A stretch of 64,000 bases of DNA from Bacillota bacterium. Its GTDB lineage: Bacteria > Bacillota > Clostridia > Christensenellales > UBA1242. The position numbers were made by a program, and so were the translations under genes. The notes below the pieces were generated by a model, which was not told where the DNA came from, did not search any database, and saw only the letters and a program-made list of their open reading frames with translations. Location of the stretch: positions 6,406-70,405 of the forward strand of contig WRBO01000005.1 in assembly GCA_009784555.1 (NCBI GenBank), given 5' to 3'. Below are positions 7,901-54,998 of this stretch, piece by piece (within the stretch, counting starts at the first letter, position 1; each line of letters starts with the position of its first letter).

Positions 7901-10900
7901 CCGCCGTAAACATTAACGCAACCGAGTTGACACGTGTGCCATCAATCACCAGCGATGAGGTATGTGGCAGATTGCTTGGGTTAACAATGGCATAGTTAAA
8001 GCCACCGCGGTTATTACGCGCACCTGTGAAACGCTCTGTTAATTGCTCTTGGGATGCCAATGCAAATGTTATGTGTTGTGGGCGGGCGATGAACAATGGC
8101 ATTTCATAGTCCTCGCTTTGGCGAATCATTGGGAAATCAAAGCCCATGGCCGCCGTAAACGCCGCCTCGGACAGACGTCCAACCTGGCCATTTTGTATTG
8201 GAACATTGATATTTTGGAAATTTACAAAGAAGTCGTCTGCATTAAAAACCTCGTCAGTTGCAGGCATTGACGAAATGTTAGAGCGAGCCGCGACCCAGTT
8301 CGACATGTTACCACCAGTTGCGCCGGTTACCGCCGCACGTCCATAACGCGCGCCGATAAATTCGATGGTTCGGCTGCCGCCCGGCATTGCCCCGCCCGGC
8401 AAGGCCGTCGACGCGTTAAATCCAACTGGTTGGTTTTCCGTTATTATTAATGCGGGTGCGGCAGGTGCCCCAGTTGCGGTTACCCAATCAACCTGGGTCG
8501 GTGCCAAAATTGCATACGTCAATACGAAAGATGCGTATTGGAACCCAACACCCGTGTTGTTGTGGGTCGGGTTGCTGTTGTTTATTCGGTTAATTCCAAC
8601 CTTTGGGGATATAACCATTGCATTAGTCCCGCCAAGAGCAAATGCATCTTGAGGGTGGGTGTTCATCCTGAAGTAGTTGTAACTGTAGGCTGCAACGACA
8701 TCAACGTTGGCTGTTTGGTGCAATTCGCCGATAAGTCCGCCGATGATTGGACTGTTACGTTCACCCCCATTCATATAGTGAATAGACAAGGCACTGAACA
8801 CACCTTCGACACGACTCCTGCGCCCTGGGCCGTTTGCCTGGCCCTCTGTTCTTGGGTTTTCTTGGACACCTATTACCCCACCGACGATTACGTTGTTACT
8901 GCCCCGTGCACCGAAGATAAAGATATCTCCCCGGTATGGTATTCCCATAACGGTATGCGTTGTGTTTGTGAAGACACTACTTGCAAAGCTGTGGAATATA
9001 TCTCCGCTGTTGATACCTACAACACCGCCAATAACAGTACGCGGAACGTGCGCGGCCTGTTCAGTTGTGAAGTTTGCCAAGTTAATATTCGCATCACGAC
9101 CGACAATCAAGCCCGCATAGAATGGGTTGTTCGTCCAATCCAAGTGTTGGTTCAACATTGTGCGCGGAATAAAGGTTGTTAGAATTGCATTCAGTTGCTC
9201 GCGCAAGACTGGGTTGATGAAAAAGTCAAAGTAGCTGTTACGTACAGTTCCCGTGTTACGTCCCACAATTCCGCCCAACACACCACGGGCATAGATTGCA
9301 GAGGTGCTGTATGCACTGTTCACCGTGCCCATGTTCAAACCGACCAATCCGCCAACCAATCCACGTGTAGCATTATATAAAACGTTTTGTGTTGAGATTT
9401 CTTCTACCAACCCCTCGTTACGAGCAACTACCCCGCCAACGTTTTTATCGACATCGTTACGGACGATGTTTTGCGCACTGATTATAAGTAATGCGATTTC
9501 ACTGTTTAATGCAACGTTATCGGACAGGACGCCACCAGCATTACGGCCGCGAATTGTCCCGTTTGACATATTGCGTCCCACAAAACCACCCAAGTTGATG
9601 TTAAACACGGTGCGTGCCCCAGCAACATGGTTTGCCTGTTCAGAGCCGAACGACACGGCCATGGCACCAGTAACATTTAGAAAGTACCTCTCGGTTACAT
9701 ATCCCATGTTAATTCCAGCAATTGCGCCCCAGTTCAAATCGGTGTGCCCAGACAATGTAAATTGACCAAAGTTAACTTCCACCGTAACATCGGTAATTGT
9801 TCCCATGTTCACGCCAGCAACAACACCAAAGTTCAGAGTTCGATAGAATTCTTGATATTGTGTAATTGGACTCCTGTTGTACATTATGTTTACCAACACA
9901 TTTGTAAAGGCAATCCCATCCACCAAACCGCGAGTATGGTCAATTTCACCAAAGCCATTCCAGTCGCCCAATCGCCCAAATAGACCAAAGTTTTCCTCGG
10001 CACTGTGCCCCACACCTACCAAGGACATTGTTTGCCAGTTCGTCGCCGATTCAAATCGCATGTTTTGCAATTCGTAACGCGCACTTAAATCTCCACCCGC
10101 AACCGCATACGTTCGCGTACCGATGAATTGACCAACAAATTGATTAATTGGTTGCAATATAACATCGTGAAAATCAATATTATCAACCAAGCGGAAGTAT
10201 CCATCAATTACTTCGCCGCTGTGACGATAGTGTCTGTAACGCCCCGACGGCAGGTCAACATAACGGTCAAAAGTATATCCAAAGTGTAACAGGAATTCGT
10301 CGCGGTTTGAAATCATAAACTGGCCTTCGCCGCTTCGTTGGTCAAATATAAAGATGCTGAACCGTAAATACGTTGCAGGCAGTAGTAACTCACCCTCGCC
10401 GTTATTTGTTCGACGGATACTGTCAAATGCGAAAATTCGTAATACTACTGGTAAATCAACATTTATTCCAACGTTACTTCTGTGCGCGGTTATTACACCT
10501 GCTTCGGACACCGAGACAATTAAATTCCCCGCCCCGTCACGGACTTCGGTAATTATCATTCCGTTTTCGTCGTATATTGTTGTGCTGCCGTCACTGTTTC
10601 TTTGTTCAAACGCAAAGCCGATACGCGGGTTGTGTGCATTCGCAGGGAACGTGTTCAAGCGAACCGCACGTGTAGCCGGCCCGTCAGTAATAACCATGTT
10701 CAGGGAATTTCCAATATCCAGGGTATTAATCATTTGGACGGTGCTTGCATCAACAACACGCACAAAGAAACGCATCGGTGCATTGAATGTGAATTCCATA
10801 CGGAATGTTCCGCCCGCATACGTGTATGTTTGGTGAATATCAAACGCAACAAAGATGAAATCACTTGTTGCCGTCAGACCATGAATACGGTACTGACGAG

Positions 10901-13597: not shown

Positions 13598-15226
13598 CTA
13601 TCTCCTGTCAAACCTGACTGTGTTTGATGTATGAACTTCTATGACACGATTCACATTCCCGCCCATAACACGCCAAGGCCGTCCGCCCGCCGATGTCATA
13701 TTCGGAATCTCTACCCCAATCTGTGTATTGCCCGCAACACCACCCTCGATCCACCCGGTAAAATCACGTGCCCCAGCGGTGGTAAAAACCTCTATATTGA
13801 ATGCTTGGAACGGATATTGCGGCATAACCGCAGCCAGTGCCGAGATACGAATGTTTCCCCCGCTACTGCCTGGAGGGGTGCTGCCGCCGTAGTATATTCT
13901 GTGTCTGCCGACCGCAACCGTACGAAATTCGACGATGATTTGTGCCCGTCCAACGGTACCAACCGAGATATCCACGATACCTATCACATTTGTCGCAAAA
14001 ATATTGCCATCAAAGCCAACAAAATTTAAGGACGGTGTACCCGAAGCATTCCGCGCAAACGTAACATTGGTTGGGCCGTAGCGATTTTCAACGGTTATGT
14101 TTCCACGTGCCCCATTTGGACTTGTAATTGGCCCAGAATTATTTCCAAGAGTCAAATTCGCACGCTCTGTTTCCGCACGCACATCGCCCATTGGGCGCGG
14201 AACGCTCAAACTTCCTTGGATACTCATGTAATCCAATTCTCCGCCGATTTCGGTTACGGTTACTGTGCTGGCATTGGCATGAATATAGGCGTCTTGGGTT
14301 ACCCCCAAAAGATTTATCCGCGCCGTGCCAGTGCGACCATGAAAGTTACCATTAATATGTCCACGTCCCGTTAAAGTACCCATGGCTGAACGATAAAAAA
14401 CATCCCCCCACACAGTACCAAAAGACAATGTGACGTTTCGGCCATCTGGTACCGATATAATCGGCTCTGATGGAATGATACCACGCACACCAACATCGCC
14501 TACTGTGACATTCCCGTAATTTCCATTTATGACCAAGCCTTGGCTAACCCCCGTCGGCGCACTTACCGTAGCCGAACCGTTCACAACCAAGTTTTGCAAA
14601 TCCATATGGAACGGATGTGCATCTGTTCGTGCATTTGGAAAAACAAATCTTCCTGTCGAGTTGCCGCCAATAATAACTGAACTCACCACCATGAAATCTG
14701 CATCTTGGTCGGCGGCAAAAGTCACATTACCCCCCCCAGTATTAAAAACAAAACTATACGGACGCGGCGTCCCCCCTATTGCATGGTCTTCGGCCGTGAT
14801 GTTCAAAACCAACAATGCCCGTCGGTTAATCGTCCCCTCGGGCGCGTGAACAACAATTCGATAATACACCTCGCCATTCGGCCGCAATATTTGGTGCCAT
14901 TCAATGTGTGTACGGTTAATACCATTAAAAGACAATCCACGCGCATCCTCGAATAATGTTATTGTTCCTTCGTCACGCTGTCCTGGTTTTCGCATACGAA
15001 TTTGTATATCTGTATTTTGTGCATTAATCATTATGCGGCGATGGTTTAATACCTCTCGTATTTCTTCACCCGCATATCGTGTATATGAGTTTCGCTGGGT
15101 CACACCCGTTAAACCAAAGATACTTAAATTAATTGGCGACCAAAACATAAATACCAGGACGAATCCGAATATCAGAAAAATGGCCAGAACAGCCATTAAA
15201 AAGAATATCGCTATCCGACGCCCCAT
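13598..15226 (-). CDS. Membrane-anchored beta-strand-repeat protein (DUF4097-like adhesin fold guessed)
   Basis: 542 aa ORF with an N-terminal TM (IAIFFLMAVLAIFLIFGFVLVFMF). The rest is Gly/Asn/Val/Thr-rich short-strand repeats (GNVTV, GNITVEN). It sits directly upstream of the giant gene on the same strand. Confidence 0.55.
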   Translation of the reverse strand: MGRRIAIFFLMAVLAIFLIFGFVLVFMFWSPINLSIFGLTGVTQRNSYTRYAGEEIREVLNHRRIMINAQNTDIQIRMRKPGQRDEGTITLFEDARGLSFNGINRTHIEWHQILRPNGEVYYRIVVHAPEGTINRRALLVLNITAEDHAIGGTPRPYSFVFNTGGGNVTFAADQDADFMVVSSVIIGGNSTGRFVFPNARTDAHPFHMDLQNLVVNGSATVSAPTGVSQGLVINGNYGNVTVGDVGVRGIIPSEPIISVPDGRNVTLSFGTVWGDVFYRSAMGTLTGRGHINGNFHGRTGTARINLLGVTQDAYIHANASTVTVTEIGGELDYMSIQGSLSVPRPMGDVRAETERANLTLGNNSGPITSPNGARGNITVENRYGPTNVTFARNASGTPSLNFVGFDGNIFATNVIGIVDISVGTVGRAQIIVEFRTVAVGRHRIYYGGSTPPGSSGGNIRISALAAVMPQYPFQAFNIEVFTTAGARDFTGWIEGGVAGNTQIGVEIPNMTSAGGRPWRVMGGNVNRVIEVHTSNTVRFDRR

Positions 15227-18489: not shown

Positions 18490-18859
18490 CGTTTTGCCCG
18501 AGGCGAAGCCGTGTGATGCACCCGCAGGGTTAACATTATAGTTCGGGCCGAGGCCGCAGGCCGAGCGTTTGGCCCGAAGCGAAGCTTGGGGGGGGTTTTC
18601 TATTTCTTGTTTTTCGCTGGGGGGGGGTTCTCCAGTTGGAGGCGATATTTAATTTTCAATTTTCATTCATCCAAAAACATGGATGATGGCGAGGCGCGCC
18701 AGGTAAGTCTTTCCGCACATCGAGGACTCCCCCATATCTGGCGGATATAACACATCTGATTTATCCGCAGATGAAGGAAAGAGCTTGCCTAGGCAGCCGA
18801 TGCCTTTGCACCTTATAGTAACATGGGATTTTTGGGCGTCAAGGGGGTTGGTGACATTT
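18490..18859 (+). ncRNA. Structured repeat element, copy A (candidate novel ncRNA or structured repeat)
   Basis: The 5' half is near-identical to 38591-38745. The 3' half is homologous to the reverse complement of 42975-43190. Twin G tracts are G8 at 18588-18595 and G9 at 18619-18627. Conserved hairpins include CATCCA-aaaaca-TGGATG (18668-18685). A long helix pairs 18701-18714 with 18776-18790 and covaries with copy C. Confidence 0.5.
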
Positions 18860-20948: not shown

Positions 20949-23900
20949 TTATTTGACCCTCATGCGGTGACGCATTGTGAAGAATAGACCGACACCCACA
21001 ATTAAGAAGCCGACGACACCCACAATGACCATGATTGCAACCATGTTCAGACCCTCGCGGATGACGAATGATTCGGCGAAGATTGTAGCACCGCTGGCTA
21101 CCTCTAGCCTTATTTGATATGAGCCGACCTCGATAAATGGAAATCCCGCCAGGATGTTCGGTGAGCCCGCGTGCATGACGATTCGGTGAAATTCCTCTCC
21201 GTCACGTGTTAGTATCAGTTCCGAGTCGCCGAAGAGTTGGAAAATCAAATACGGGTTGTATCGGATTATGAATACGTCTGTGGTTGTGCTGCCGAATGGG
21301 TGGTTGCTCTGGATTACTGGTTGTTGCATTGGCATTATCATAATTGTAAACGACCGATAGATTGGTGGGCGGATATTGCCCTGGGCCACGCGCATTGTTA
21401 CGATGTATTGGCCACTGCGCCCTACGCCCGCGCGCAGGGATATTTGTGTCAGGTGTCCCTCGGGGAACAGGTGGCGTGCATCCGAACCGTTCAATGCCAC
21501 ACCCACGATTTCGATGTTTGGGGCGCCAGGGACGAAGAAACTCTCCATATGTTCGGTTGGGTTTACCAGTTGAACCATGAAGTCAATTCGCAGGCGGCCA
21601 GCAGGAGTCAAGTTATAAACGTATTCAACGGTAAAGCGATATAGCCCCGGGTCGGTGAAGTTCCAGAAGCGGCGTTCATGTTGACTGGTTGCCCGGAAGT
21701 CCTCTATTACCATGCCGTTACGTGTAACATGCATTTGCGAGATATACATGTGCAGGCCAGGCAAGCTGTTTGATGTGAATGGGATTTCCATCACGTTTAT
21801 ATTTATTTCGTTGTTGAACACCATTCCATCAATGACCGATTCCCCGTTTACCAAGATTGGTGGGCGGGTCAAGTTAATCAAGGTAAAGTGTTCGACCGTA
21901 TCCGTGTCTGTTGTGCCAGGGATGACATAGGTGAATATCCTGTGGTTTCCCGCCCAGTCCATAATTCGGAATGTAATCAATCCGTAATCGTGCGCGGACA
22001 GGCGCAATTCGTCCCCGACGAACAGACGTCCCACAGGGCGGCCGTTGAATGAATAATCGGCAAAATACAGGTTGCCAGGGTGTTGGTTGTGGCGGGCGCC
22101 CCCAGGTGTTTGCAGGGTTACAATCAGCCCAGCCGCGCCCAATTGGTTAAACAGAAGGTAATGCGGCACAGGCAGGCCCGCACCCTCGGCCGGGAAGGCG
22201 TTTGGACTCTCGACATTTATGGATACGTTTGATAACTCGCTGCTCCATATTGGTGTTACGGCCAGGTACATGCGACTGCCCGTTAGGTCGGATTCCAGGA
22301 TGTATATGTATGTAAAGACACTGTTCCCTATTATATCTTGGCCAGACAATTCGACCTGGGGGTCGTCCATGTTTATTACACGGCGCGGATAGTTCAATGA
22401 CGGCACGATTTCCAAGCGGTCTTGCCATTCTTCTTGGTTGTTTTCGACGACGATGAAATAGCTTGGGATACGGCGTTGTTGGAATGTGTTGCCGACGGCT
22501 ATGTTTAGAATGAATGGCTCGGGACTGGCAATTAATTGGGTACGGTCATAGCGCGGGTTTGATTCGCTCTCGGGTTCCCAATCCGCAAAGTCAGGGTTTT
22601 CGGTGTTAAAGAAGACCTGGTACGTTGTGTTGTCGACGTCCGTGATTGTGAATTCGTATGTTGAAACAGCCCATGCATCGTTCATTACGGTTATCACGTA
22701 TCGGCCCGCGTTCGTCAGGTTGAATCGTGTTTGACCGCGGCGCACGGTACGAGTAGTTGTCAGCAGGCGGCGGTTAGTTTCCGATTCGTCCAGTGTAGGG
22801 TCAAAGTTTGGGTTTGGGAATGTACGCGCGTATGTAATTGTAACGTTGAACAGGGTGCTTGGGTTGATGAAGCTGACGGATACTATGCCGTCGACCGAGC
22901 CCATTGCGATGTCCTCGGACACGTCCCCCCCGTTCAGGTTCGAGAATATCATTTCAGGCAGGTTGATATAAAACACCCATTCTTGGTCAAAGATTACGTG
23001 GCCCGTGCCACGGCTGACCAAGACTACCCGCCAATGTGATTGGGCGAAGGCGGAAGGCAGGCCAAAATGTACCGTCATCATATTTTCGTATGGGGTGAAT
23101 GTCATGTTTTCGGCACTGTTGATAAATTGGCCGTTGCGGTAAACACGTAGCTCGTGAACGTTCGAGGTAAAGGATATTTCCACGCCGCGTTCGTCACCCG
23201 TATGGTGCAGTAATCGGTTCTGTACAACGACCGGTTGTGTTCCACCCAGGAACGCAAAGCCAAATTCATTGCCCCAAATTCCGTTGTGTTCGGCGACGAC
23301 TTGGCGGCGGAATGGGTCGGTGACGGTTATGCGCAGTTCACGTGATGCCCCGTTTGGAATGATGACCTCGCCCGTGTGGGGGATGAATTCCTGGCTGACA
23401 TGTGTGCCGTCGAACATATCAAACAGGCCCAGGGTCATGAAGTTGAAACTGCGGAACATTGGGTGTAGTAGATGCCAGTTCACGATGGATACCGTGAGAG
23501 AACCGTTATCCCCCTCGGCCATTGCAATCATAGGCATCAGAGTATTGTTAGTAATTTGGAATACATCCACGTTCCATACATGAAAGCGGTTGTTTATTGT
23601 TAGGGTCATGACACCCTCGCCCAATGCGCCTATCCAACCGTTCAGAACATCGACCAAGTCGGCAGGGCGCGCGTTATTGAATACCATCGGCGTTTCGATA
23701 AAGTGATGGCCGCCCAAGGTTATTCCCGTTTGCGCGGTTTGATTAAATCGGCGGAAGACACGGTTTTCGTATCGAATTTCAAAGTAAGGGTTTTGGTTCC
23801 AGAACTCGGTCACATCATTTACGCGCAAGCCTTGGCCGAAGACACGAACCTGGTCCGCTATTAGGTTGTCGCCGTCAACCACGCCCGCCGTACCGATACG

Positions 23901-26900
23901 GTCGATGTATCCCAGTCCGCGTAGTTGGATAAAGTACTCGCGAGTGTTGCCGGCCTCGTCCCTTTCGGTTATTCGGAAGAAACGCGATTGACCCGGTTGC
24001 AATCCAACACGTTGGGCGAACGGTGCCCCACCGTATTCAAAGTGGATTTCACCCGTCATAGGGGTTAGGGCGGGTGTGACCTCTACATATGATATCGAGA
24101 AAGCCTCTAAATCTGGGTTCAGGATAGGGCGACTAAATATAAAATTATTTGGTACCGCATAGATAAACCTATCTTCGTTCAGGTCATTTGTGGTGAACCC
24201 CGCACGTTCGTTCCAGAGTCTGTCCAAGGCTTGGATATTTCGGAAGTTGTGTTGCGGCGGCGTATTGTCGATGACAATCGAGTGTGATATCGGCGGAACC
24301 ATCGGGTCATCGGTATAGAGGATGACGCCGAATACATCGTTCTCGGCCCATCCCATGTTGGTCAGCATGTATTCAACGCGCACCACCCCGCCGTCGACCG
24401 TTTGGGTCAACGATGGAACGTTTGTAATTGTTGGGTGGTTTGGGGTGTTTAATTGTCCGCGGGTGATGCGGCTGTTTGTTACGTCGGCGAAGAACCTGTT
24501 TGGGTCGGATTGGGTGTACACAAAGCGCAATGTTTCGCCCGTTTGTAATTGTGTCGAGCCCAATGAAACACGGTTAGTTCCGCGATAGAATGCACCTGGG
24601 CTGCCTCCTCTTTCGATTTCAAAGAGGATTTCACTCCTGTTTGGTTCGTTGATACGTTCGCCAAAGCCATAGAGTTGCCATCGCATACCGCCACTGCCGT
24701 CTGTGAATGATAGCCTGTACATTCCTGTGTCTGTGAACGGGATGGATGCGTTGTTTGCGTTACGGTCGCGCAGGGTTGTAAAATCACCGCCCGCGATATC
24801 CCGTTGTTGTACCACCAAATTCAAACGCAAGGATTGAAAATTAAAGGATGTTTGCGGAATACGCGCCCCGAATTCATTTGTGGTATAGAAGTGCAGTTGC
24901 ATGATGCTGGACCCGAAGGCGACCTCCTCTCCGTCCACAATCGCCGTGTGTCCGAACTTTGTTCCGAATGTTGGCATTCGCACGGATGCGGTCGAGTTTG
25001 TTTGCAACACGACATCGTGGCCAGGAACCATGCGGGTGTTATTTATTCTTTGAAAGTTTGTAATGTCAGCAGTTTTCAGGCCAAAGTCGATTTCAATCGC
25101 ACTGTCGAAAACCCCTGGGTTCGCGATAATTGGTGTATTATCAACGATAAAGAAATAGTTTCGTTCGATTTCGTCCAATCGGTCGGCGGGCACCGTGACC
25201 GGGTTAAATCGGCGGGTGATTACATAGACACCAGGCAAGGTTCCCTCGTTACGGTCGGCACGGTTGATTTCGCGATAAACCCAATGTTCGGCCAAGTTCG
25301 TGTTGGCGGGGCGTTGATACAAACGCTCGGTCGATGTGACATCGCGCGCGAACGGATAGTTCGGGTTGACGTGGCGGGTGCGGATGACCTCGTCATCCAC
25401 CGTTTCCTCTGTATAATAAAATCTTTGCCAATTTAATTCGTGGAATGCCATGTCGACCGTATCAACAACAAATTGGTTGTTCATTCCGCCGACGATAAAT
25501 TCACTCTGTAAAAATGCAAATGTCGCAAATTCGCGGTTGGAAATTCCGCCCGGGCGAACGACCGAGGCCGTTTCGCTCCATTCGTCGCTGGCCGCATCGA
25601 CCACCAGTTCGGGCACATCGTCCTCTAGGATTGTTCCACGGCTCATATCGAAATTCACGAAAACGTAATAGAACGATATGTTGCCCAGCGCGTCCTCGGT
25701 ACGGAAGATATAGAAATTTTCGCGGTTCAGATGAACATAGTGGCGGTTGACGTTCGCGGGAACCTCTATGTCCCAATCGGTGCCCTCCAATGCCAAATGT
25801 TCCCCCAATGGGCGGTTGCGGTCAAATACCGTTTGGAAACTGGTTTCCGCCATTTCTAAACTTATCCCTACGTTATCGATTGGAATTGCGAAACCATAGC
25901 GTGTTTCCCATTCCTCGCGCGGGAAGAGCGTTCCGATTGAATTTACACGCGGTACGATGGCCGTGCCGAACATGCCCGCGTTCGCCAATATTTCATAAAG
26001 GGTTTCGGTCGTGTACAATGTTGTGCCAAGGCCGCGGACATGGAAATCCAAGGCGGCGGACATCGCAACGTCCGAGCCGATGATTTTATTTTGTCCGAAC
26101 CCGACCCACGTTGCCTCGGTCGTCATGTTCATGTGGTTCAAATCGTCAACCATCGGGTTTTGGGCAAAGCCCTGGGTTGAGTTATCAATTACCAATGTGA
26201 AAATAGACGTATTTCCCGCCATGTCCATGATGTGGAATATGTACAATCCCGCCGCACGGAAAGTAATCGGTAAACGATATCCGATATGGGTGTTGTTAAC
26301 GTCGCGTATCATAACGGGGCGCAGTTGCAATGGCTCGGCCCCCGTGCCCATCATCGTATATGGCGTGGCCAAGTTCGCCGCGGTATGGTCATCCGTTTGC
26401 AGGAAACTGGTAAACCTGTTTTCAAATGCGTGAAAGAAAACCTGGGCACGGTGAAAACTGACACCGCTTGGTTTTAATCCCCAACGCAATCCGATTTCAA
26501 AGTTGATGTCACCCGCACCCCCCCATATGGCAAAGTCAGGGTGTGTGTTTGGAACGACGAATTCGCGCCCGCCAACGTTTTCCAATTGGAATGAATTGAC
26601 CTTGGAGTTATCGACGATGACACTGAATTGCGCGCTGGCCTGGCCCAATGCCCCGTAAAAAACACGGAAGGTATATATTCCGTCGAAATAACGGCCCTCG
26701 GCATCCAATTGAGTTGCCAGTTGCGTTGCGAAATTTTCCAAATCAAAAGACGGGATTGTGCGAATATGTTGTCCGTCAAAGGTCGTGATGACCAATTCGA
26801 TACGCGGGCGCATCATAAATGGTGACAATTCGGAATACGCCGTTGCCCCGTCCATGAATACGAGGAATGAGCCACTTAACGTAACGCGGCGGTCAACAAA

Positions 26901-28637
26901 AGCGTTCAGCGTATAAACGTCCAAAATATTTCCGCCCGCGTCGGTACGTGCAACGCGCACATCCATAACGTTCAAAATGCGGAAGTTGAATATTTGGCGG
27001 AAGACAACGCGTTCATGGCCGCTGGCCACCGGGAACACGTAATACAGGACAACGATGTATTCGCCCGAGGCGTCAAAGGGACGTCCCTCTACAAATGGTT
27101 GTTGTACCCAACCGCGCCCATCGTTAAATGACACGGTGTTCAAAAATTCAATACGTGGACGGCCGTCCGGCCATGGGGTTGCGTTGACCTCGGTTTCAAA
27201 TGTTGCGGTTCCAAAGATTTGCACAGGTGGGCTGTTTGTTACGACTGGACGGAACCCGCCACGCGCACCGGAGGCCCATTGTTCCATTTGTGTTTGGAAT
27301 GTGCGTGCACCCGCAACCGTTGTTGCGACCGTGTTGGCGGCGGTTGGTAATAGGTCAAGTCCCGATATATCCGCGTTGACCTCGGCATTGCCGAACCATG
27401 CGGGGCGGCTTTGGTTTGGGGTGTCCCAGTCGGGCTGGTTATCGAAAAATTCCTCGAAATGGGCCTGGAACCCGAAAATTTCCAAGGTATATGTGTATCC
27501 GGTAAAATGCAAAACAGGAATTTCGACCCCGTCGAAGACCAAAATCATACGCGAGCGCAGGATGTATTGCCCCAATCGCTCGAACGTTATGCGGTATATG
27601 TCGGTTTCGTCTTCGCGCATTTGTTGCGGCGGGTCGACGGGAATTTGTTGAAAGTTTCGTGTGTCGACGTTGACCTCGAACCTGCGTGGGTCGAAACGTA
27701 CAAATGGGTTTGGCCCCGCAAAGTTGAAAAAGAACTGGTCGGTGCCCTCGCGTTGGACAATTGGGGCCTCGGGCGTGGCAACCCCTGTTTCCGAAATCGT
27801 GTTCAAAATAGGCAATAATTCATAGTGACGCGTGTGGACGATGAAAAATGCGAACTCTACGACGATGTTTGTGCGCACCCATCCCCAAACGTCGCTGGCG
27901 ATTGTTATGTTGAAACGGAAACGGTAAAAGCCCTCGTCAAAAAAGGTCGCGGCGAAACTGTATTGGTTGTTGATGGCGATGCGCCCCGCGTTTGCGGGTT
28001 GGGCCGTCCATGCGCGCATGACATCGTTCGATTGGTTGTCAAAGTTTTGGAACATCCATGGTGTTGTGCTGTAATCAAATCGTGTTGTATCGTATATGAA
28101 ATTTCCGTTTGCATCCGTTGCGTAACCCGTGCCTGTGCTTCTGCGCCCTGTGAATTCAAACCATGTTGCGGTTGGGGCCATGTTACGCCCCGTTAGGTTA
28201 GTTAATTCCACCACCACACGGTTGGCATCGCCCGCGCTGCTGTCCAACATTATCATGCCAAAGTCATGGACAAACACGCCCTCGTCATTTATGGCTGGGC
28301 GGCCGCCGCTGGCCCAATTCAGTGTCGGATCTTCGGATACTATCCGACGCATGTCAACGTCACTAAAAATCGGACGTGCGTCCCCCGTTGTGCCGAAAAA
28401 TTCACTGGTCAGGACCAGGTCTTGGTCCATGCCCCTGTCTCGACCCATTGTCAGGCGGCCGGCATTGTCCCCAACAACAGGGGGGACATAATCAAACCGA
28501 CCATCGGGAACCAATACGTTGTGACCGTCGGGAGATATTGCATTAACGGTTCGCGCAGTGAGAGGCAGCAAAAATCCCCCACCCACCATAAAGGCAAGCA
28601 GGGCGACAATCGCAAAGGACAGAAACCATTTCCTCAT
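20949..28637 (-). CDS. Giant (2562 aa) type-I membrane or surface protein
   Basis: Uninterrupted 7.7 kb ORF. N-terminal signal-like segment (WFLSFAIVALLAFMVGGGFLL) and C-terminal TM plus basic tail (VAIMVIVGVVGFLIVGVGLFFTMRHRMRVK). I recognise no catalytic motif. Confidence 0.8.
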   Translation of the reverse strand: MRKWFLSFAIVALLAFMVGGGFLLPLTARTVNAISPDGHNVLVPDGRFDYVPPVVGDNAGRLTMGRDRGMDQDLVLTSEFFGTTGDARPIFSDVDMRRIVSEDPTLNWASGGRPAINDEGVFVHDFGMIMLDSSAGDANRVVVELTNLTGRNMAPTATWFEFTGRRSTGTGYATDANGNFIYDTTRFDYSTTPWMFQNFDNQSNDVMRAWTAQPANAGRIAINNQYSFAATFFDEGFYRFRFNITIASDVWGWVRTNIVVEFAFFIVHTRHYELLPILNTISETGVATPEAPIVQREGTDQFFFNFAGPNPFVRFDPRRFEVNVDTRNFQQIPVDPPQQMREDETDIYRITFERLGQYILRSRMILVFDGVEIPVLHFTGYTYTLEIFGFQAHFEEFFDNQPDWDTPNQSRPAWFGNAEVNADISGLDLLPTAANTVATTVAGARTFQTQMEQWASGARGGFRPVVTNSPPVQIFGTATFETEVNATPWPDGRPRIEFLNTVSFNDGRGWVQQPFVEGRPFDASGEYIVVLYYVFPVASGHERVVFRQIFNFRILNVMDVRVARTDAGGNILDVYTLNAFVDRRVTLSGSFLVFMDGATAYSELSPFMMRPRIELVITTFDGQHIRTIPSFDLENFATQLATQLDAEGRYFDGIYTFRVFYGALGQASAQFSVIVDNSKVNSFQLENVGGREFVVPNTHPDFAIWGGAGDINFEIGLRWGLKPSGVSFHRAQVFFHAFENRFTSFLQTDDHTAANLATPYTMMGTGAEPLQLRPVMIRDVNNTHIGYRLPITFRAAGLYIFHIMDMAGNTSIFTLVIDNSTQGFAQNPMVDDLNHMNMTTEATWVGFGQNKIIGSDVAMSAALDFHVRGLGTTLYTTETLYEILANAGMFGTAIVPRVNSIGTLFPREEWETRYGFAIPIDNVGISLEMAETSFQTVFDRNRPLGEHLALEGTDWDIEVPANVNRHYVHLNRENFYIFRTEDALGNISFYYVFVNFDMSRGTILEDDVPELVVDAASDEWSETASVVRPGGISNREFATFAFLQSEFIVGGMNNQFVVDTVDMAFHELNWQRFYYTEETVDDEVIRTRHVNPNYPFARDVTSTERLYQRPANTNLAEHWVYREINRADRNEGTLPGVYVITRRFNPVTVPADRLDEIERNYFFIVDNTPIIANPGVFDSAIEIDFGLKTADITNFQRINNTRMVPGHDVVLQTNSTASVRMPTFGTKFGHTAIVDGEEVAFGSSIMQLHFYTTNEFGARIPQTSFNFQSLRLNLVVQQRDIAGGDFTTLRDRNANNASIPFTDTGMYRLSFTDGSGGMRWQLYGFGERINEPNRSEILFEIERGGSPGAFYRGTNRVSLGSTQLQTGETLRFVYTQSDPNRFFADVTNSRITRGQLNTPNHPTITNVPSLTQTVDGGVVRVEYMLTNMGWAENDVFGVILYTDDPMVPPISHSIVIDNTPPQHNFRNIQALDRLWNERAGFTTNDLNEDRFIYAVPNNFIFSRPILNPDLEAFSISYVEVTPALTPMTGEIHFEYGGAPFAQRVGLQPGQSRFFRITERDEAGNTREYFIQLRGLGYIDRIGTAGVVDGDNLIADQVRVFGQGLRVNDVTEFWNQNPYFEIRYENRVFRRFNQTAQTGITLGGHHFIETPMVFNNARPADLVDVLNGWIGALGEGVMTLTINNRFHVWNVDVFQITNNTLMPMIAMAEGDNGSLTVSIVNWHLLHPMFRSFNFMTLGLFDMFDGTHVSQEFIPHTGEVIIPNGASRELRITVTDPFRRQVVAEHNGIWGNEFGFAFLGGTQPVVVQNRLLHHTGDERGVEISFTSNVHELRVYRNGQFINSAENMTFTPYENMMTVHFGLPSAFAQSHWRVVLVSRGTGHVIFDQEWVFYINLPEMIFSNLNGGDVSEDIAMGSVDGIVSVSFINPSTLFNVTITYARTFPNPNFDPTLDESETNRRLLTTTRTVRRGQTRFNLTNAGRYVITVMNDAWAVSTYEFTITDVDNTTYQVFFNTENPDFADWEPESESNPRYDRTQLIASPEPFILNIAVGNTFQQRRIPSYFIVVENNQEEWQDRLEIVPSLNYPRRVINMDDPQVELSGQDIIGNSVFTYIYILESDLTGSRMYLAVTPIWSSELSNVSINVESPNAFPAEGAGLPVPHYLLFNQLGAAGLIVTLQTPGGARHNQHPGNLYFADYSFNGRPVGRLFVGDELRLSAHDYGLITFRIMDWAGNHRIFTYVIPGTTDTDTVEHFTLINLTRPPILVNGESVIDGMVFNNEININVMEIPFTSNSLPGLHMYISQMHVTRNGMVIEDFRATSQHERRFWNFTDPGLYRFTVEYVYNLTPAGRLRIDFMVQLVNPTEHMESFFVPGAPNIEIVGVALNGSDARHLFPEGHLTQISLRAGVGRSGQYIVTMRVAQGNIRPPIYRSFTIMIMPMQQPVIQSNHPFGSTTTDVFIIRYNPYLIFQLFGDSELILTRDGEEFHRIVMHAGSPNILAGFPFIEVGSYQIRLEVASGATIFAESFVIREGLNMVAIMVIVGVVGFLIVGVGLFFTMRHRMRVK

Positions 28638-29678: not shown

Positions 29679-31703
29679 TTACCAGTCAAATACATCATTG
29701 CGTTTTGCGTTTTTGATAACGATGTCGTTTCGGCGGCGGATGTCGTAATAGATATTTTCTTCGTCAAAGTATTTACTTGCCTGCCATTCTTCTGGGGCTT
29801 TGTACAATGTTACCAAGCCATTTTTAACACATTGGTACCATGGTGTAACGGTTGTACGTAACGGGTTAAATCCGAAACAGTAAACATACAACGAACCCAT
29901 TTTCAAATCCAACAATTCGTTAGGCGGCAGGAGGGGCCGCGAGACCTTGTTTTTGTTTATCGATTTCGACCCCGCCTCGCTGTCGTTTTCGGCGGCCTTA
30001 CCCGTTGTTTTGGAAATACTCTCGGTTTCGGTTTCGATTGCCATTTCACCCATCAGGTCACTGAACATCTTTCGCGTGTCCATATCGTTAACCCCGATGA
30101 ATATTTGGGTGTTACAGTTATTCCGAATTGTAACCGCAGATTCGGGGCCGTACACGGCCTCGAGTTGTTTATAGTCTTGTAATATCAATGTAAAGAACAA
30201 TCCACGGGAACGCGCAACGGTGATAATTGTACTGAAATCATTGATTTTTGGCATGTTACCAAATTCGTCCAAAATAAAGTACGTCGGCCATTTTAATGTT
30301 CCGCCCATGTTGTTCGCGGATTCAACCAGGGCCTTGTACAATTGGGCGACCATCAACGTCGCCAACGGGTGACGAATTTTAATTTGGTCGGGGATGATGA
30401 GGAACAATACGGTCGGCTTGTCAACGAACCCCTCGAACATGATTTCGGTTCCCGATGTTATGTAACAAATACCCTTGTCGGCAAACATAGACAGTTTGTT
30501 CGTAACAACACCAAAGAAGTTACGCATTGTGTTTTCACTGTTGGCGACAACCGTTTGGGCCAGCATGGATGCGGGCGAGAGTTTACTCCTCCCCTCGAAA
30601 TAGTTACGGATTGAACCGAAGCTGTTATTCGGGTCGTTATCGCGCAGGGTCAGGATTTTGAAAACGTTATAGAAATTGAAACGTTCCTTGGTCATGCCCA
30701 GTTCCGGGCGCAGACTGTCTTCCAGCATTGCCAAGGCCGTCCCTTGTATCATGTCGCGGGCCCCTTGTTCCCAACTGGGGTCTTTTTCGTTTTCGATTGG
30801 ACAAATAACCGCACAAATGTCCTTGATGTCGGCCTCGGATTCGGACAGTAATCTTTGTTTCAATGTCTTGCGTTCCATATCCGCCATATCAAATGATGGA
30901 AAAGCGACCTTGTTAAATTCATACCATTCGTTCGGGTAATTTTGCGCGATTATACGCAAACCCATGTCGTTTGGGTTGACACCCGAATGTTTAATAAGCT
31001 CTTTGTCCAAACCGTGCGCGCGTTGGAACATGTTCCATGCACGTTCAAACGGGTTCCATGTGGATGATTTTGTTGGTTCGGACAGATTAAAGACCTGGAC
31101 ATCGTAACCGTTACGGCGCAATGTTTCGGCCATCATGTTGTACAATTCGCCCTTTGGGTCGGTGACGACCATGTTTGGCTTTGCACCGCTGTGCCCCAGG
31201 GTATATATAAACGGGTTGACGAATGTTTGACCCTTACCCGAACCGGTGGTTCCCAAAACGATTGTGTGGTAATCCTTTGGTACCATGTTGATGTGGATGT
31301 CGCGGCCGCTGGCCTCGAACCGTACTAATGTCCCCGTTTTTTTCTGGCGCCCTATTCCTGACAATGTCGAATAGATATATTCGCGATTGGCCTCGGATTT
31401 GGTCATCCAACGGTTGGAATAAAATTGTTCGACCGTTTTTGATTTTTCATCGACCAACAAAAATCCACTGACAACTATTGCGACCGCCGCAATCGGTGCA
31501 ACCAACACAATGGTAATAAATGTTGGATTGGTAAAGGCCGCCAACGACAATGCCGGGTCACCGCCCATGACATTGACCCCAACCATAGCCAGGATAATAA
31601 TCACCAACATTATCGCCGCGCCGAACCCCGCATAGATAGGCCATTTTTCTTTTATATTATCAAGACTTATCAAATCATCCCCCTGTGAAAACCCTTTCAC
31701 CAT
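29679..31703 (-). CDS. Type IV secretion coupling protein (VirD4/TraG/TraD family ATPase)
   Basis: N-terminal TM segments, Walker A VLGTTGSGKGQTF, Walker B YFILDEFGNMPKI, and TLILQDYKQL. The start is uncertain: ATG at 31703, with a TTG-initiated ORF open to 31733. Confidence 0.8.
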   Translation of the reverse strand: MVKGFSQGDDLISLDNIKEKWPIYAGFGAAIMLVIIILAMVGVNVMGGDPALSLAAFTNPTFITIVLVAPIAAVAIVVSGFLLVDEKSKTVEQFYSNRWMTKSEANREYIYSTLSGIGRQKKTGTLVRFEASGRDIHINMVPKDYHTIVLGTTGSGKGQTFVNPFIYTLGHSGAKPNMVVTDPKGELYNMMAETLRRNGYDVQVFNLSEPTKSSTWNPFERAWNMFQRAHGLDKELIKHSGVNPNDMGLRIIAQNYPNEWYEFNKVAFPSFDMADMERKTLKQRLLSESEADIKDICAVICPIENEKDPSWEQGARDMIQGTALAMLEDSLRPELGMTKERFNFYNVFKILTLRDNDPNNSFGSIRNYFEGRSKLSPASMLAQTVVANSENTMRNFFGVVTNKLSMFADKGICYITSGTEIMFEGFVDKPTVLFLIIPDQIKIRHPLATLMVAQLYKALVESANNMGGTLKWPTYFILDEFGNMPKINDFSTIITVARSRGLFFTLILQDYKQLEAVYGPESAVTIRNNCNTQIFIGVNDMDTRKMFSDLMGEMAIETETESISKTTGKAAENDSEAGSKSINKNKVSRPLLPPNELLDLKMGSLYVYCFGFNPLRTTVTPWYQCVKNGLVTLYKAPEEWQASKYFDEENIYYDIRRRNDIVIKNAKRNDVFDW

Positions 31704-31761
31704 TATTATAAGGAAAACCCCGCACAATACCAAATAAAAAATTTACACCAACGAAACAAAA

Positions 31762-38590: not shown

Positions 38591-38997
38591 CATTTGGCCC
38601 GAGGGCGTTAGCCGTGTGATGCGCACGCAGTGCAAACCGAATAGTTCGGGCCGAGGCCGCAGGCCGAGCGTTTGGCCCGAAGGCAAAGCCCTGGGGGGGG
38701 GGTTTTACTTTTGCGTTTTCCGTTGGGGGGGTTTTCTAGGGGGCCTCCTTGCAGGGAAAACTAACTTTTCGGGCCGAAGCCGAGCGGAGCGAGGAGCGTT
38801 GTACAGTCACGATTGGTTGTGATGCATTGTGCACACTTGCCAGGAGAAATGACCGCCATGTTTATTTAGTTTTATAAAAGCACACAGGGCAGGCCAATTT
38901 CTCTGGTCCTCGGGTGCGAAAAGTTGTTGTTCCCTCGTCGGCCCTGTACCTTACAGTAACATGGATTGATTTTTATTCAAGGGTGTTACTGACAATT
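38591..38997 (+). ncRNA. Structured repeat element, copy B
   Basis: 38591-38745 matches 18494-18640, including an identical 42-nt block ATAGTTCGGGCCGAGGCCGCAGGCCGAGCGTTTGGCCCGAAG. Twin G tracts are G10 (38693-38702) and G7 (38725-38731). The middle is unique, closed by a long-range helix ACAGGGC...GCCCTGT (38884-38890 with 38941-38947). The shared 3' tail is CCTTACAGTAACATGG...AAGGGTGTTACTGACAATTTTA. Confidence 0.5.
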
Positions 38998-39213
38998 TTA
39001 ATCATTTAGATTCCCCAAGATATCTTCATATGAACAATCCAAAGATTTACACAGTTTCTTTAATACTTCCAAACTGGGTAGTCCTCTGCCCGCCGCATAA
39101 TCACCAATCACCGTCGGTGTGACACCAACCTCCTCGGCGATTTTCCTGTTGGTTTTTCCCGAGTATTTTATGTGGCGTTTTATATTATCCGCAATCGCCT
39201 CTCTGAACGTCAT
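38998..39213 (-). CDS. XRE family HTH transcriptional regulator (71 aa)
   Basis: HTH_3 pattern: GKTNRKIAEEVGVTPTVIGDYAAGRGLPSLEVLKKLCKSLDCSYEDIL. Confidence 0.85.
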   Translation of the reverse strand: MTFREAIADNIKRHIKYSGKTNRKIAEEVGVTPTVIGDYAAGRGLPSLEVLKKLCKSLDCSYEDILGNLND

Positions 39214-39306: not shown

Positions 39307-39435
39307 ATGGATGAAGTCATTAGGGAGTTGTTGGAGATACTGCGCGGCTATATGGAGGATATGGCGACATTGCGAACACGGATGAACGAAACAATTAGGC
39401 GTATCGCCGAGTTAGTTGCCGACGAGGGCAAATAA
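39307..39435 (+). CDS. 42-aa helical microprotein, paralogue 1
   Basis: Encodes MDEVIRELLEILRGYMEDMATLRTRMNETIRRIAELVADEGK, with SD AAAGGGGG. It differs from 43539-43667 at 7 of 129 nt: 6 synonymous changes and one Asp/Glu change. It is too short for the supplied ORF track. Confidence 0.7.
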   Translation: MDEVIRELLEILRGYMEDMATLRTRMNETIRRIAELVADEGK

Positions 39436-39454
39436 CTTTTCGCATCCGAGGACA

Positions 39455-42950: not shown

Positions 42951-43252
42951 AAAATGTCAGTAACCCCCTTTACATATATGAGTTCCATGTTACGTTAGGG
43001 TGCAAAGGCGTCGGCTGCCTACGAGATGCTGTTTTTAGTCTTCTGCGGATACACTGTGGATGTTGCTAACTGTAGGTGTACCAGTCCTCGAAGACGAAAA
43101 ACACATCTCGGGCGCGCCTCGCCACATCCATGTTTTTGGATGAATGAAAATTGAAAACTGAATATCCTGCACACCCTGCGGCCCCTTGGAAAACCCCCCC
43201 CAGTTAAAAACGCAAATTCAATAACCCCCCCCAAGGGAATTTACTGACATTT
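42951..43252 (-). ncRNA. Structured repeat element, copy C (inverted relative to A and B)
   Basis: The reverse complement aligns with 18583-18859. Shared blocks are the twin G8 tracts (C8 on + at 43194-43201 and 43225-43232), TTTTCAATTTTCATTCATCCAAAAACATGGATG, GGCGAGGCGCGCC, TCGAGGACT, TATCCGCAGA, TAGGCAGCCGA(T/C)GCCTTTGCACC and GTAACATGG. It is bracketed by inverted repeats at 42951-42970 and 43233-43253. Confidence 0.5.
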
Positions 43253-43459
43253 TTAGATATCGGTGCGGCCAAAAAGGTAATCGGTTGAAACGCCAAAGAA
43301 ATTGGCGAGTTTGTCGACAGTTTCAAATTTTGGTTGCGTTTCATTTTGTTCGTATCTGGCGATTGCGGCGTGGCTGACACCCACTATCTTCCCTACCTCG
43401 CGTAAGGATAACTTTCTTTCGGTACGTAATTCTCGTAATCGTTCGCCAAATATTTTCAT
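43253..43459 (-). CDS. XRE family HTH transcriptional regulator (68 aa)
   Basis: MKIFGERLRELRTERKLSLREVGKIVGVSHAAIARYEQNETQPKFETVDKLANFFGVSTDYLFG is a classic HTH_3 sequence. The track ORF extends to 43489. Confidence 0.9.
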   Translation of the reverse strand: MKIFGERLRELRTERKLSLREVGKIVGVSHAAIARYEQNETQPKFETVDKLANFFGVSTDYLFGRTDI

Positions 43460-43469
43460 TGTAATATAA

Positions 43470-43524
43470 TTGACAATTACCAGTGTCACGCTTATAGTGA
43501 CAATATGTCATAGAAACTGTGACA
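43470..43524 (+). promoter_or_regulatory. Promoter and operator region of XRE module 2
   Basis: TTGACA (43470-43475), 17 nt, then TATAGT (43493-43498). Inverted repeats built from TGTCA/TGACA half-sites are TGTCAC-N7-GTGACA (43484-43502) and TGTCA-N8-GTGACA (43506-43524). Confidence 0.55.
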
Positions 43525-43538
43525 ACGGAGGGGAGAAA

Positions 43539-43667
43539 ATGGAAGAAGTCATTAGGGAGTTGTTGGAGATTTTGCGTGGCTATATGGAGGATATGGCGAC
43601 CTTGCGAACACGGATGAACGAAACAATCAGGCGTATTGCCGAGTTAGTTGCCGACGAGGGCAAATAA
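43539..43667 (+). CDS. 42-aa helical microprotein, paralogue 2
   Basis: Encodes MEEVIRELLEILRGYMEDMATLRTRMNETIRRIAELVADEGK, with SD GGAGGGGAG. See 39307-39435. Confidence 0.7.
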   Translation: MEEVIRELLEILRGYMEDMATLRTRMNETIRRIAELVADEGK

Positions 43668-43844
43668 CTTTTCGCATACGCGGTACCCGTAATATAGGGC
43701 CGACGAGCTGGAAAAGGGTCCGCGCCGCCGAGGACCAGCGGAAACGGCCTACCCTTTATTGTAACTTTTTGCAGTTGACCACATGGTGGTCTTTCCGCCT
43801 CCACAGGCAAGCGGACCCTTTTCCCGCGAAGGAGGCCCCCCTCT

Positions 43845-53039: not shown

Positions 53040-53064
53040 CCCCGTATCCACAGCGGGGTTTTTT
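53040..53064 (+). terminator. Intrinsic terminator
   Basis: CCCCG-tatccaca-GCGGGG followed by T6. The same 19-nt hairpin recurs inverted at 63651-63669. Confidence 0.7.
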
Positions 53065-53110
53065 CATTAGTTCGTGCGCCCTGCGCACATTTATGACACG
53101 TGGTCCGATG
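53059..53110 (+). repeat. About 50-nt direct repeat R1 (3' flank of uvrC)
   Basis: TTTTCATTAGTTCGTGCGCCCTGCGCACATTTATGACACGTGGTCCG aligns with 54793-54842. Its hairpin is GTGCGC-cct-GCGCAC (53074-53088). Confidence 0.7.
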
Positions 53111-53140
53111 TAGGTTTTTGTATACAGCAATAATATCCCC

Positions 53141-54799
53141 CTACTTCAGCCCGGGGATTGTTCGTTTGGCGCGGAGGTTTCGGTGGAAGGTGTTGGCGAA
53201 GCGGTGGGCCTCGTCCCGAACCCGTTGGAGGAGGCGGAGGGAGTAGCTGCGTTTGGAGAGTACGAGCGGAGTACTCTCCCCCGGTTTGAAGATTTCTTCG
53301 TTTTCCTTTGCCAGGGCGATGAAGTTGATTTCAGAGTTTCCCGCGACATCCATAACCGAGGATAGTTGGCCCTTGCCCCCGTCGATGACAATTAGGTCGG
53401 GGGCGATGCCGAATGAGATGTCGGGGGTTCCGATGCGGGCGAGGCGGCGGGTGATGACCTCTTGCATAGAGAGGAAGTCGTTGTTACCCATGCCGTGTTT
53501 GATTTTGAAGCGGCGGTAGAGTTTTTTCTCGGCCACGCCGTTTATGAAGACGACCATTGATGCGACCATATCCGTGCCGTCCGTGTGCGAGATGTCGTAA
53601 CATTCGATTTTTTTCGGCGGGTGGGTAAGGCCGAGTACAGTGCCCAGTTCGTCCACCGCGCCCACCGTGAATTGTTCGCGGAATTTGATTTTTTCAATGG
53701 ATGTGTCGATGTATTCATCCGCGTTGGTTTTCGCCATGTCGAGGAGTTGACGTTTAAGCGCGACCTTTGGGTTGAAGATGGTACAGCCGAGGGCGACAGC
53801 AACTTCCGTCATCGGAAATTCCGCGACGATTTGTTCGGGCACCACGTTTTGTTGATAATATTGCATTACGAAGCCAGAGAGCATGTCTTCCTCTGACTGT
53901 ACCCCCGCATGTTGTTCCGAGAAGTTTTGTATCCCGATTAATTTGCCCGCACGTACGGAGAGTACCGACACAACGAACACGTCCCCGCGGATTGCGTATG
54001 AGAAGACATCCGCGTTCAGGTCGCGCGCGACGTGGGTTATCGTGCGGTCACGCAATTTATCGAGGAAGTTCATACCGTTACGATAGCGGATTGCAATTTC
54101 AAATTGTTCAAGGGCGGCCGCGTTTTCCATTTTTGATTGGAGTTTTTCGCGTGCGCCGAATTCCCGTTCCCCGCGCAAAAAAGATTTAACATCGTCGATT
54201 ATTTTTAAGCATTCTTCGCGCGTTACCCGTTTGGCACAAGGGGCCAAGCACCGCCCGATTTGATGGTTTATGCAGGGTGTTTTTTTCGCAAATTCGACTT
54301 TGGAACATGTGCGTAATGGAAAGATGTCGAGAAGAGTGTCGAGTAGTTCGGATGCCCAGATGCCGTTGAAGTATGGCCCGAAGTATTTGCCGCCTTTTGT
54401 TAGTTTGCGGGTGACCTCTAGATACGGCCAGTCGCCGTCAGTTACCTTTATATATGGAAAGGTTTTGCTGTCTTTTAATAATATATTGTAGTGGGGTTGG
54501 TGTTTTTTGACCAAGTTGGCCTCTAGCCCCAGGGCGTCGTTTTCCGTTTTGGTGATGAAGTAGTCGAAGTCGCGCACCCGTTCCAGCATTGCGGTTACTT
54601 TTGCATCGTGACTGCCGCTCTTGAAGTAACTGCCCAATCTTGCGCGCAGGGCCTTGGCCTTGCCAATGTAGATGATGTGCCCCGCCCCATCGCGCATGAG
54701 GTAGACCCCAGGTTTTGCGGGGACGAGGGCGAGTTTTTCGTGGATTGGCCCTTGGGGGGGGTTATTGATTTTTGATTTTTCACTGGGGGGGGTTTCCAT
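53141..54799 (-). CDS. uvrC: Excinuclease ABC subunit C
   Basis: GIY-YIG domain (PGVYLMRDGAGHIIYIGKAKALRARLGSYF), a UVR domain and a C-terminal (HhH)2. The only plausible starts are the ATG at 54799 (METPPSEKSKINNPPQG...) or upstream to 54871. Either way both C8 tracts fall inside the coding sequence. Confidence 0.9.
   Translation of the reverse strand: METPPSEKSKINNPPQGPIHEKLALVPAKPGVYLMRDGAGHIIYIGKAKALRARLGSYFKSGSHDAKVTAMLERVRDFDYFITKTENDALGLEANLVKKHQPHYNILLKDSKTFPYIKVTDGDWPYLEVTRKLTKGGKYFGPYFNGIWASELLDTLLDIFPLRTCSKVEFAKKTPCINHQIGRCLAPCAKRVTREECLKIIDDVKSFLRGEREFGAREKLQSKMENAAALEQFEIAIRYRNGMNFLDKLRDRTITHVARDLNADVFSYAIRGDVFVVSVLSVRAGKLIGIQNFSEQHAGVQSEEDMLSGFVMQYYQQNVVPEQIVAEFPMTEVAVALGCTIFNPKVALKRQLLDMAKTNADEYIDTSIEKIKFREQFTVGAVDELGTVLGLTHPPKKIECYDISHTDGTDMVASMVVFINGVAEKKLYRRFKIKHGMGNNDFLSMQEVITRRLARIGTPDISFGIAPDLIVIDGGKGQLSSVMDVAGNSEINFIALAKENEEIFKPGESTPLVLSKRSYSLRLLQRVRDEAHRFANTFHRNLRAKRTIPGLK
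54749..54795 (+). repeat. Twin-G8 core motif, copy D (antisense to the uvrC 5' coding region)
   Basis: CCCTTGGGGGGGGTTATTGATTTTTGATTTTTCACTGGGGGGGGTTT, with G8 at 54754-54761 and 54785-54792. It is nearly identical to the reverse complement of 43191-43237. Confidence 0.75.
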
Positions 54800-54842
54800 T
54801 AATCCGTGGGCTGTGCCCACATTTATAACACGTGGTCCGTGG
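54793..54842 (+). repeat. About 50-nt direct repeat R2 (5' end of uvrC)
   Basis: TTTCCATTAATCCGTGGGCTGTGCCCACATTTATAACACGTGGTCCG. Its hairpin GTGGGC-tgt-GCCCAC (54806-54820) carries compensatory changes relative to R1. Confidence 0.7.
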
Positions 54843-54998
54843 TTTGTTGAGTCTTGCACCTTTTTCATCACTTTACCATATCATGGTTTTTTTCATAGTC
54901 AAGAGAGTTCCTGACACTTTTTGAAGAATTGAAACATGTTGTAAATCCCGCCTTGAATTGATATACTATGAGGTAATTGTTGAAGGAGATTTTTTTAC

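Follow-up and report, generated by a model that had tools for sequence, protein, structure and literature searches.

In a stretch of 64,000 nucleotides (nt) from a Bacillota bacterium (NCBI GenBank assembly GCA_009784555.1, contig WRBO01000005.1, positions 6,406 to 70,405 of the forward strand; the whole stretch is called the window below), the nucleotide excision repair (NER) gene uvrC carries two runs of eight cytosines near its 5' end. The reading that we prefer, with a probability of roughly 0.7, is that a lineage-specific composite repeat has been absorbed into uvrC and that the frameshift fragility it brought is incidental. A 114-nt composite, consisting of a C8-N23-C8 core and a covarying hairpin, would have entered the gene at about the junction of codons 3 and 4, and would owe its retention to a length that is a multiple of three and to a sense frame free of stop codons. 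The leaderless start, the ATG at 54868, would still be functional: it precedes the site of the insertion, and DNA added after codon 3 would leave initiation in place. UvrC would then be made with an N-terminal extension of about 38 residues, probably disordered, in which each C8 run is translated as Pro-Pro. These runs would be a structural trait of the repeat family and not a feature evolved in uvrC, and a replication slip of one nucleotide in either direction would truncate UvrC, such that loss of the gene, and possibly its recovery, would be more frequent than for an ordinary gene.

The initial annotation of this DNA, made from the sequence alone, had placed both tracts inside the 5' coding region of uvrC, and the sequence together with the list of open reading frames (ORFs) confirms this placement. 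Each run is G8 on the plus strand and C8 on the minus strand, the sense strand of uvrC, whose frame is open from the GTG at 54871 to the stop at 53141. The codons that had been read from the ATG at 54799 (ATG GAA ACC CCC CCC AGT ... CCC CCC CAA GGG) are correct: run 1 falls in ACC CCC CCC and run 2 in AAC CCC CCC CAA, both of which encode Pro-Pro, and the homopolymers are translated from every canonical start, as had been claimed. The further claim that any slip of +1 or -1 would disrupt uvrC agrees with a simulation in which each single change leaves a truncated protein of 29-143 residues (run 1: stop after 29 amino acids (aa) for +1 and after 90 for -1; run 2: stop after 90 or 143), and the gene is therefore mutationally fragile; in the same simulation a -1/+1 combination across both runs brings the frame back. 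The paired-run layout is far beyond chance in the window: there are 11 matches to G8 against 3.0 expected, and the pattern G7-N24-G7, with a period of 31 nt, gives 16 overlapping matches at four sites against 0.7 expected.

Comparison with the uvrC 5' ends of relatives, which the initial annotation had proposed, reveals how the runs are placed within the gene. Five orthologs (L002, L003, L004, L152 and L153) begin with (M/V)NKIHEKL and lack both the insert and the runs; the N-termini of relatives are short and similar (for example MNKIHEKLALVP, MTKIQEKLSLTP and MNKILEKLEITP), and UvrC of the window reads MKK, then 38 residues, then IHEKLALVPAKPGVY, so that IHEKLALVP follows the extension. In the solved GIY-YIG domains of UvrC (PDB 1YD6 and 1YCZ), chain residue 5 is aligned to query residue 42 (E = 3.6e-29 for 1YD6). 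Because the ortholog N-termini and the PDB alignment both run from Ile42, the ancestral start is placed by this comparison 3-4 residues upstream of that residue, which leaves about 114 nt extra, and these extra codons are made of two modules that are found elsewhere, the C8 core and a hairpin termed D6. The suggestion that the N-terminus of uvrC had been invaded by the repeat is thus upheld. Frame 0 of the insert has no stop codon, and frames 1 and 2 have two each; with a length divisible by three, the open frame supports, but does not prove, translation through the insert and a continued need for UvrC. At the insert junctions a possible AAGG microhomology is the sole feature seen by eye, and since no terminal inverted repeats or target-site duplication were found there, we do not class the insert as a miniature inverted-repeat transposable element (MITE).

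Where translation begins is best judged from the promoter. The A of the ATG at 54868 is the seventh base after the -10 element of a predicted promoter, and the five relatives carry an extended -10 (TGGTAAACT, TGGTAAAAT, TGATATACT or similar) 5-6 nt upstream of a GTG or ATG. No Shine-Dalgarno sequence was found at the candidate uvrC starts (-2.4 to -3.8 kcal/mol, compared with -9.2 for the divergent ftsH), and the uvrC mRNA of the window and of its relatives appears to be leaderless. The identical protein was found twice, once called with 552 aa (P0001, JGI) and once with 575 aa (P0121 = MCL2846492.1, NCBI); the promoter geometry and the NCBI call make the ATG at 54868 the likely start, rather than the ATG at 54799 from which the initial annotation had begun its reading. 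Its list of in-frame starts was correct for the ATG at 54799 and the GTG/ATG at 54866-54871 but incomplete, as it missed the GTG codons at 54859-54857 and 54820-54818. The ATG at 54799-54797 sits within D6, where another and weaker site resembling a promoter (TCAACA-17 nt-(TGT)TATAAA, 54850-54822), which was seen by eye and failed the scan rule, could serve it.

The runs might instead be untranslated, with initiation at a non-canonical ATC at 54745 and the repeat in the 5' untranslated region, an explanation to which we give very little credence. The stretch from the runs to the GIY-YIG domain has no in-frame ATG, GTG or TTG, and its sole near-cognate codon, this ATC (54745-54743), stands exactly at Ile4 of the orthologs and is preceded by AAGGG; the gene callers, too, differ over the start (552 versus 575 aa). 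However, ATC is a very poor initiator, the AAGGG lies only 3 nt upstream and pairs weakly (-3.8 kcal/mol), a promoter placed 7 nt before an in-frame ATG matches the leaderless layout of the relatives, and an untranslated insert would leave unexplained that it is free of stops in the uvrC frame only. Many relatives (P0011, P0024, P0033, P0039 and others) are annotated from 'MRD...', a start that lies past the first catalytic Tyr. In the one relative checked, L004 (P0011; 1417-1440), the caller skipped a GTG 6 nt after TGGTAAACT and began at 'MMRD'; to judge from its position, the leaderless GTG is probably the true start, and the 'MRD...' annotation may be a systematic start miscall in this UvrC clade. 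For annotation use, the 575-aa call is probably right, and several of the 'MRD...' relatives probably start at an upstream leaderless GTG.

The state of the protein bears on whether the insertion was tolerated. Scores exceed the cut-offs for four Pfam domains (GIY-YIG at residues 53-128, UVR, UvrC_RNaseH and the UvrC RNase H endonuclease domain), and the protein shares 60-68% identity with its relatives over its full length, with no internal frameshift; its nearest relatives, apart from the identical entry, reach only 68%. A C-terminal (HhH)2 domain is missing: no HHH Pfam match was obtained, and the ORF ends with ..RTIPGLK and the stop codon where that domain would begin (53141-53200). The domain is also missing in the closest ~55 homologs (P0002-P0057, about 450-580 aa) and present in more distant ones (~605 aa). 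It is conceivable, yet improbable, that the insertion crippled uvrC, by lower expression or early pseudogenisation, and that the gene owes its open frame to a recent accident. Such an account can draw on the prior absence of the (HhH)2 domain in the clade and on the addition of a hairpin and C-rich sequence at the extreme 5' end of a message without a Shine-Dalgarno sequence, but it fits poorly with an intact ORF of 575 codons, with the four domains, with GIY-YIG residues that align to solved structures, and with the conservation of the full-length protein.

Homopolymers are error-prone in sequencing, and public assemblies contain many junk poly-G contigs, so the true run lengths could differ from those of the window, and the gene could in truth be out of frame. 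We consider such an artefact the least likely of the explanations weighed here. Three assemblies (the window, JGI Ga0136643_10124304 (L001) and Logan SRR5215140_158322 (L151)) are 100% identical over 3.1-5.2 kb and all read C8/C8, the flanks of the runs are unique and complex, and related copies in other contigs have the same architecture.

The two runs also recall the homopolymer tracts by which genes are phase-varied in Neisseria, Haemophilus, Campylobacter, Helicobacter and Mycobacterium tuberculosis, where a C7 run in glpK phase-varies (bioRxiv 10.1101/717272; PMC10334774), and uvrC could be an evolved contingency locus in which capture of the repeat after the leaderless start made a reversible on/off switch for NER, with the runs kept because such switching, and with it a change in mutation or damage tolerance, is of advantage. 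As in those systems, C runs of at least 7 nt stand in the 5' coding region, at a length that phase-varies in other bacteria, and in simulation each slip of one nucleotide turns the gene off and a second slip restores it, the compensating -1/+1 combination giving extra ON states; run lengths of 7-10 among the paralogous copies show in addition that such runs change in length on an evolutionary time scale. We nevertheless regard a switch as unlikely, though somewhat less so than a crippled gene. In contrast to phase-variable loci, the runs of uvrC came with a repeat element, whose six other known copies are intergenic, and the five orthologous uvrC genes lack them. No length polymorphism was seen among the three assemblies (perhaps from one sample), all of which have C8/C8, and the 90% protein cluster of UvrC has no frameshift-derived member. 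The target is a DNA-repair gene with two tandem runs, not a surface, restriction-modification or metabolic gene, and a full-text literature search found no phase-variable uvrC. Nor is there a general excess of coding-region runs in the window, in which one other G8 lies in an ORF. Were a switch nonetheless at work, subpopulations would differ in damage tolerance and mutation spectrum, uvrC would give the NER pathway its first contingency locus, and simple-sequence instability would be tied directly to the control of a repair pathway.

Several points weigh against our preferred reading, the absorption of a repeat with incidental fragility. A random insert would be both in frame and free of stops about once in ten times, and retention by selection is therefore suggestive, not proven. 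No terminal inverted repeats or target-site duplication were found that would point to a mechanism of insertion, and the reading assigns no function to the core itself. The start codon and leaderless status of uvrC are predictions from promoter geometry, and the three concordant assemblies may share one sample, in which case they say little about the stability of the runs in the population.

The repeat family was traced from the core module, which has three further copies in the window (c1, c2 and c3) and three related copies in metagenome contigs among the matches listed (L056, L087 and L106, all from one JGI sample, Ga0123352). All six of these copies are intergenic. Over the seven copies, again with the metagenome copies limited to the matches listed, the 14 runs measure 7-10 nt, with a mode of 8, and judging from this comparison long runs are a conserved feature of the core family, kept family-wide. 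Neither a neighbouring XRE gene nor one particular gene orientation accompanies the core consistently across copies, and a steady link to either was rejected. The other ~100 loci among the matches listed from the scan of metagenome contigs were junk or belonged to an unrelated repeat. The core pattern in GTDB representative genomes gave 41 loci, all of them low-complexity poly-G/T assembly junk, and the genome that the window comes from is evidently not one of these representatives; viral contigs contained nothing relevant, whether scanned with the core or with the RNA body; and a search for other proteins with the translated insert gave no candidates. Conventional folds of either strand were no better than those of shuffled sequences (z = -0.2 to +0.7), and no G-quadruplex was predicted on the G-rich strand, where the 23-nt central loop is above the limit of ViennaRNA.

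The unrelated repeat that the metagenome scan retrieved also has two G runs, and reads ggcaaaatctggCTTG7-10TCTGTAGTACATAAATTTTCCGCCTG7-10, with the general form ggcaaaatctggCTT-G7-11-TCTGTAGTACATAAATTTTCCGCCT-G7-10-atggttttccgg. Among the matches listed it is abundant in JAAUX*/JAAUY* contigs and its run lengths differ between copies (loci L070, L088, L091, L096, L097, L099, L104, L113, L120, L121, L127, L136 and L139).

D6, the second module of the insert, has another copy just 3' of the uvrC stop, and further copies directly beside the core in L056 (3214-3271) and L087 (6074-6131). Its layout is ..CCATTAATCCGTG-stem-loop-stem-CACATTTATAACACGTGGTCCGTGG.., and the stem shows a compensatory change between the two window copies (GTGGGC/GCCCAC versus GTGCGC/GCGCAC), with a further variant, GTGAAC/GTTCAC, in L056 and L087; the variants GGC/GCC, CGC/GCG and AAC/GTT amount to covariation. 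L056 is an element of the c1 type (88.7% identity to c1 over the RNA body, with another flanking gene) to which D6 has been added. Because the otherwise similar c1 lacks D6, the two modules move separately, and D6 is probably, on this comparison, an independently mobile miniature element. Every copy abuts GGGG(T/A)TT(T)C, next to which D6 seems to land. A LexA/Cheo box in the D6 hairpin was rejected by eye for its wrong spacing and for a motif that is not kept among copies.

The initial annotation had taken the G-rich strand as the RNA strand of the element family, and the uvrC copy as antisense; this view is not supported, as a conserved promoter-like module in the six other copies suggests that transcription uses the C-rich strand. 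On that strand, 200-330 nt upstream of the six cores, stands AAAATGTCAGTAAC-CCCTTGAC(-35)-16 nt-(TGT)TACTRT(-10), the metagenome copies again being those among the matches listed. The c1 copy alone meets the 9-of-12 rule of the scan, c2 and c3 being weaker, and the module often immediately follows the preceding gene's stop codon (c1, c2 and L056). Since the module faces the core on the C-rich strand, the uvrC copy would have the same polarity as its family. After the module (AAAATGTCAGTAAC..TTGAC-16-TGT-TACTRT) come a structured segment of ~190-250 nt and the C8-N23-C8 core, in that order. Two types of segment exist, type A (c1, c3, L056 and L106) and type B (c2 and L087); the predicted fold of type A has a long closing helix with six pairs that show double changes. 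In type A, standard pairs fill 173/190 cells on the C strand versus 164/190 on the G strand, a weak difference obtained with a structure that was itself predicted on the C strand. A search of the whole window against Rfam gave nothing at gathering thresholds and one irrelevant match at E <= 5. The combination of promoter, segment and core may represent an undescribed small-RNA family, for which it is a candidate; the core might serve as the 3' part of a small RNA, rich in C and poor in G, as a Rho entry site, or as a bidirectional stop signal. A weak CCC/GGG hairpin with a T-run is flagged by the scan on the G strand at the core.

Mosaic intergenic repeats are known from other bacteria. Pneumococcal BOX and enterobacterial BIME/REP elements consist of short modules that recur between genes in varied combinations, some with covarying stable hairpins, often beside terminators. 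Core and D6 resemble them in recurring in differing intergenic combinations and in a hairpin with compensatory changes, but share no sequence similarity with them; moreover, the core is made of direct G8 repeats rather than a palindrome, and is tied to a conserved promoter-like module and a structured segment of ~200 nt. A review of MITEs lists BOX, ERIC and REP (PMC10969869), and describes the Rickettsia palindromic elements (RPEs), short hairpin repeats found in frame inside genes. The closest analogue of the event in uvrC is, by its features, the in-frame insertion of an RPE or of an intragenic MITE-like element, of which uvrC would be a further case: the insert is likewise a short dispersed hairpin repeat, in frame and free of stops in a housekeeping gene whose protein is intact and gains a stretch of peptide. 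It departs from RPEs in that one intragenic copy is known in the core family, the six others being intergenic; in the absence of terminal inverted repeats or a target duplication; in being a mosaic of two separately mobile modules with two long homopolymers; and in its position at the extreme N-terminus, just past the probable leaderless start.

The gene itself compares with leaderless bacterial mRNAs in having its -10 element 5-7 nt before the start and no Shine-Dalgarno sequence, in a layout shared by the five relatives; it differs from the usual ones in that uvrC of relatives uses GTG, which is unusual for leaderless initiation, whereas the window copy has ATG. If the repeat was indeed simply absorbed and tolerated, uvrC provides, outside Rickettsia, a clean natural case of a core DNA-repair gene that has taken in a dispersed repeat; a leaderless start keeps initiation unaffected by inserts downstream, and the gene is left with two frameshift hotspots.

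Table 1. Positions of uvrC, of its insert and of the related repeat modules, in coordinates of the window unless a metagenome locus is named.
Feature	Position	Strand	Remarks
uvrC ORF	53141..54868	-	575 aa plus stop from the probable leaderless ATG; ORF list, Pfam, MCL2846492.1
uvrC promoter-like site	54875..54902	-	TTGACT (54902-54897), 16-nt spacer, TATGGT (54880-54875), TG upstream; promoter scan
Likeliest start codon, ATG	54866..54868	-	at the predicted transcription start
Inserted composite repeat	54746..54859	-	114 nt / 38 codons (VQDSTNHGPRVINVGTAHGLMETPPSEKSKINNPPQGP); boundaries ±3 nt or so
D6 hairpin module in uvrC	54797..54859	-	stem GTGGGC 54806-54811, loop TGT, stem GCCCAC 54815-54820
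Core module in uvrC	54751..54796	-	(C)CCTT-G8-22 nt T-rich-T-G8-TTTC (plus-strand form); family D3, alignments, pattern search
C8 run 1	54785..54792	-	5'-proximal in uvrC; encodes part of T-P-P
C8 run 2	54754..54761	-	encodes part of N-P-P-Q
ATC codon, Ile42	54743..54745	-	first residue aligned to orthologs and to solved UvrC GIY-YIG domains
Second D6 copy	53049..53116	-	immediately past the uvrC stop; joined to a terminator-like hairpin that is bidirectional
Core copy c1 (G8/G9)	18585..18630	+	intergenic, between convergent genes
Core copy c2 (G10/G7)	38691..38736	+	intergenic
Core copy c3 (G8/G8)	43191..43237	-	intergenic, from 16 nt past the stop of an XRE gene
Promoter-like module	18842-18815; 38980-38953; 42969-42996	-; -; +	also in L056, L087 and L106
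Candidate small-RNA elements	18640-18842; 38740-38980; 42969-43190	-; -; +	also L056 2948-3160, L106 170-364, L087 5830-6070

Near c2 and c3 the window contains a direct repeat of 154 nt (92% identity; 39298-39451 and 43530-43683), each copy of which lies upstream of one of the two small minus-strand XRE-family genes that neighbour c2 and c3 (38998..39213 and 43253..43489), suggesting that repeat and gene form a duplicated cassette. Elsewhere in the window, two giant ORFs on the minus strand (1944..13496 and 20949..28637, of 3850 and 2562 aa) and a gene for a TraG/TraD-like type IV secretion coupling protein (29679..31733, minus strand) share the stretch with the housekeeping genes metK, mnmE, ftsH and uvrC. 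A further G run of 8 nt (14730-14737) lies in the ORF at 13598..15226 (minus strand), where it encodes ..NTGGGNVTF..; the 542-aa product belongs to no known family and carries a membrane anchor at its N-terminus. The run is unrelated to the core repeat family, and constitutes a second potential frameshift hotspot.

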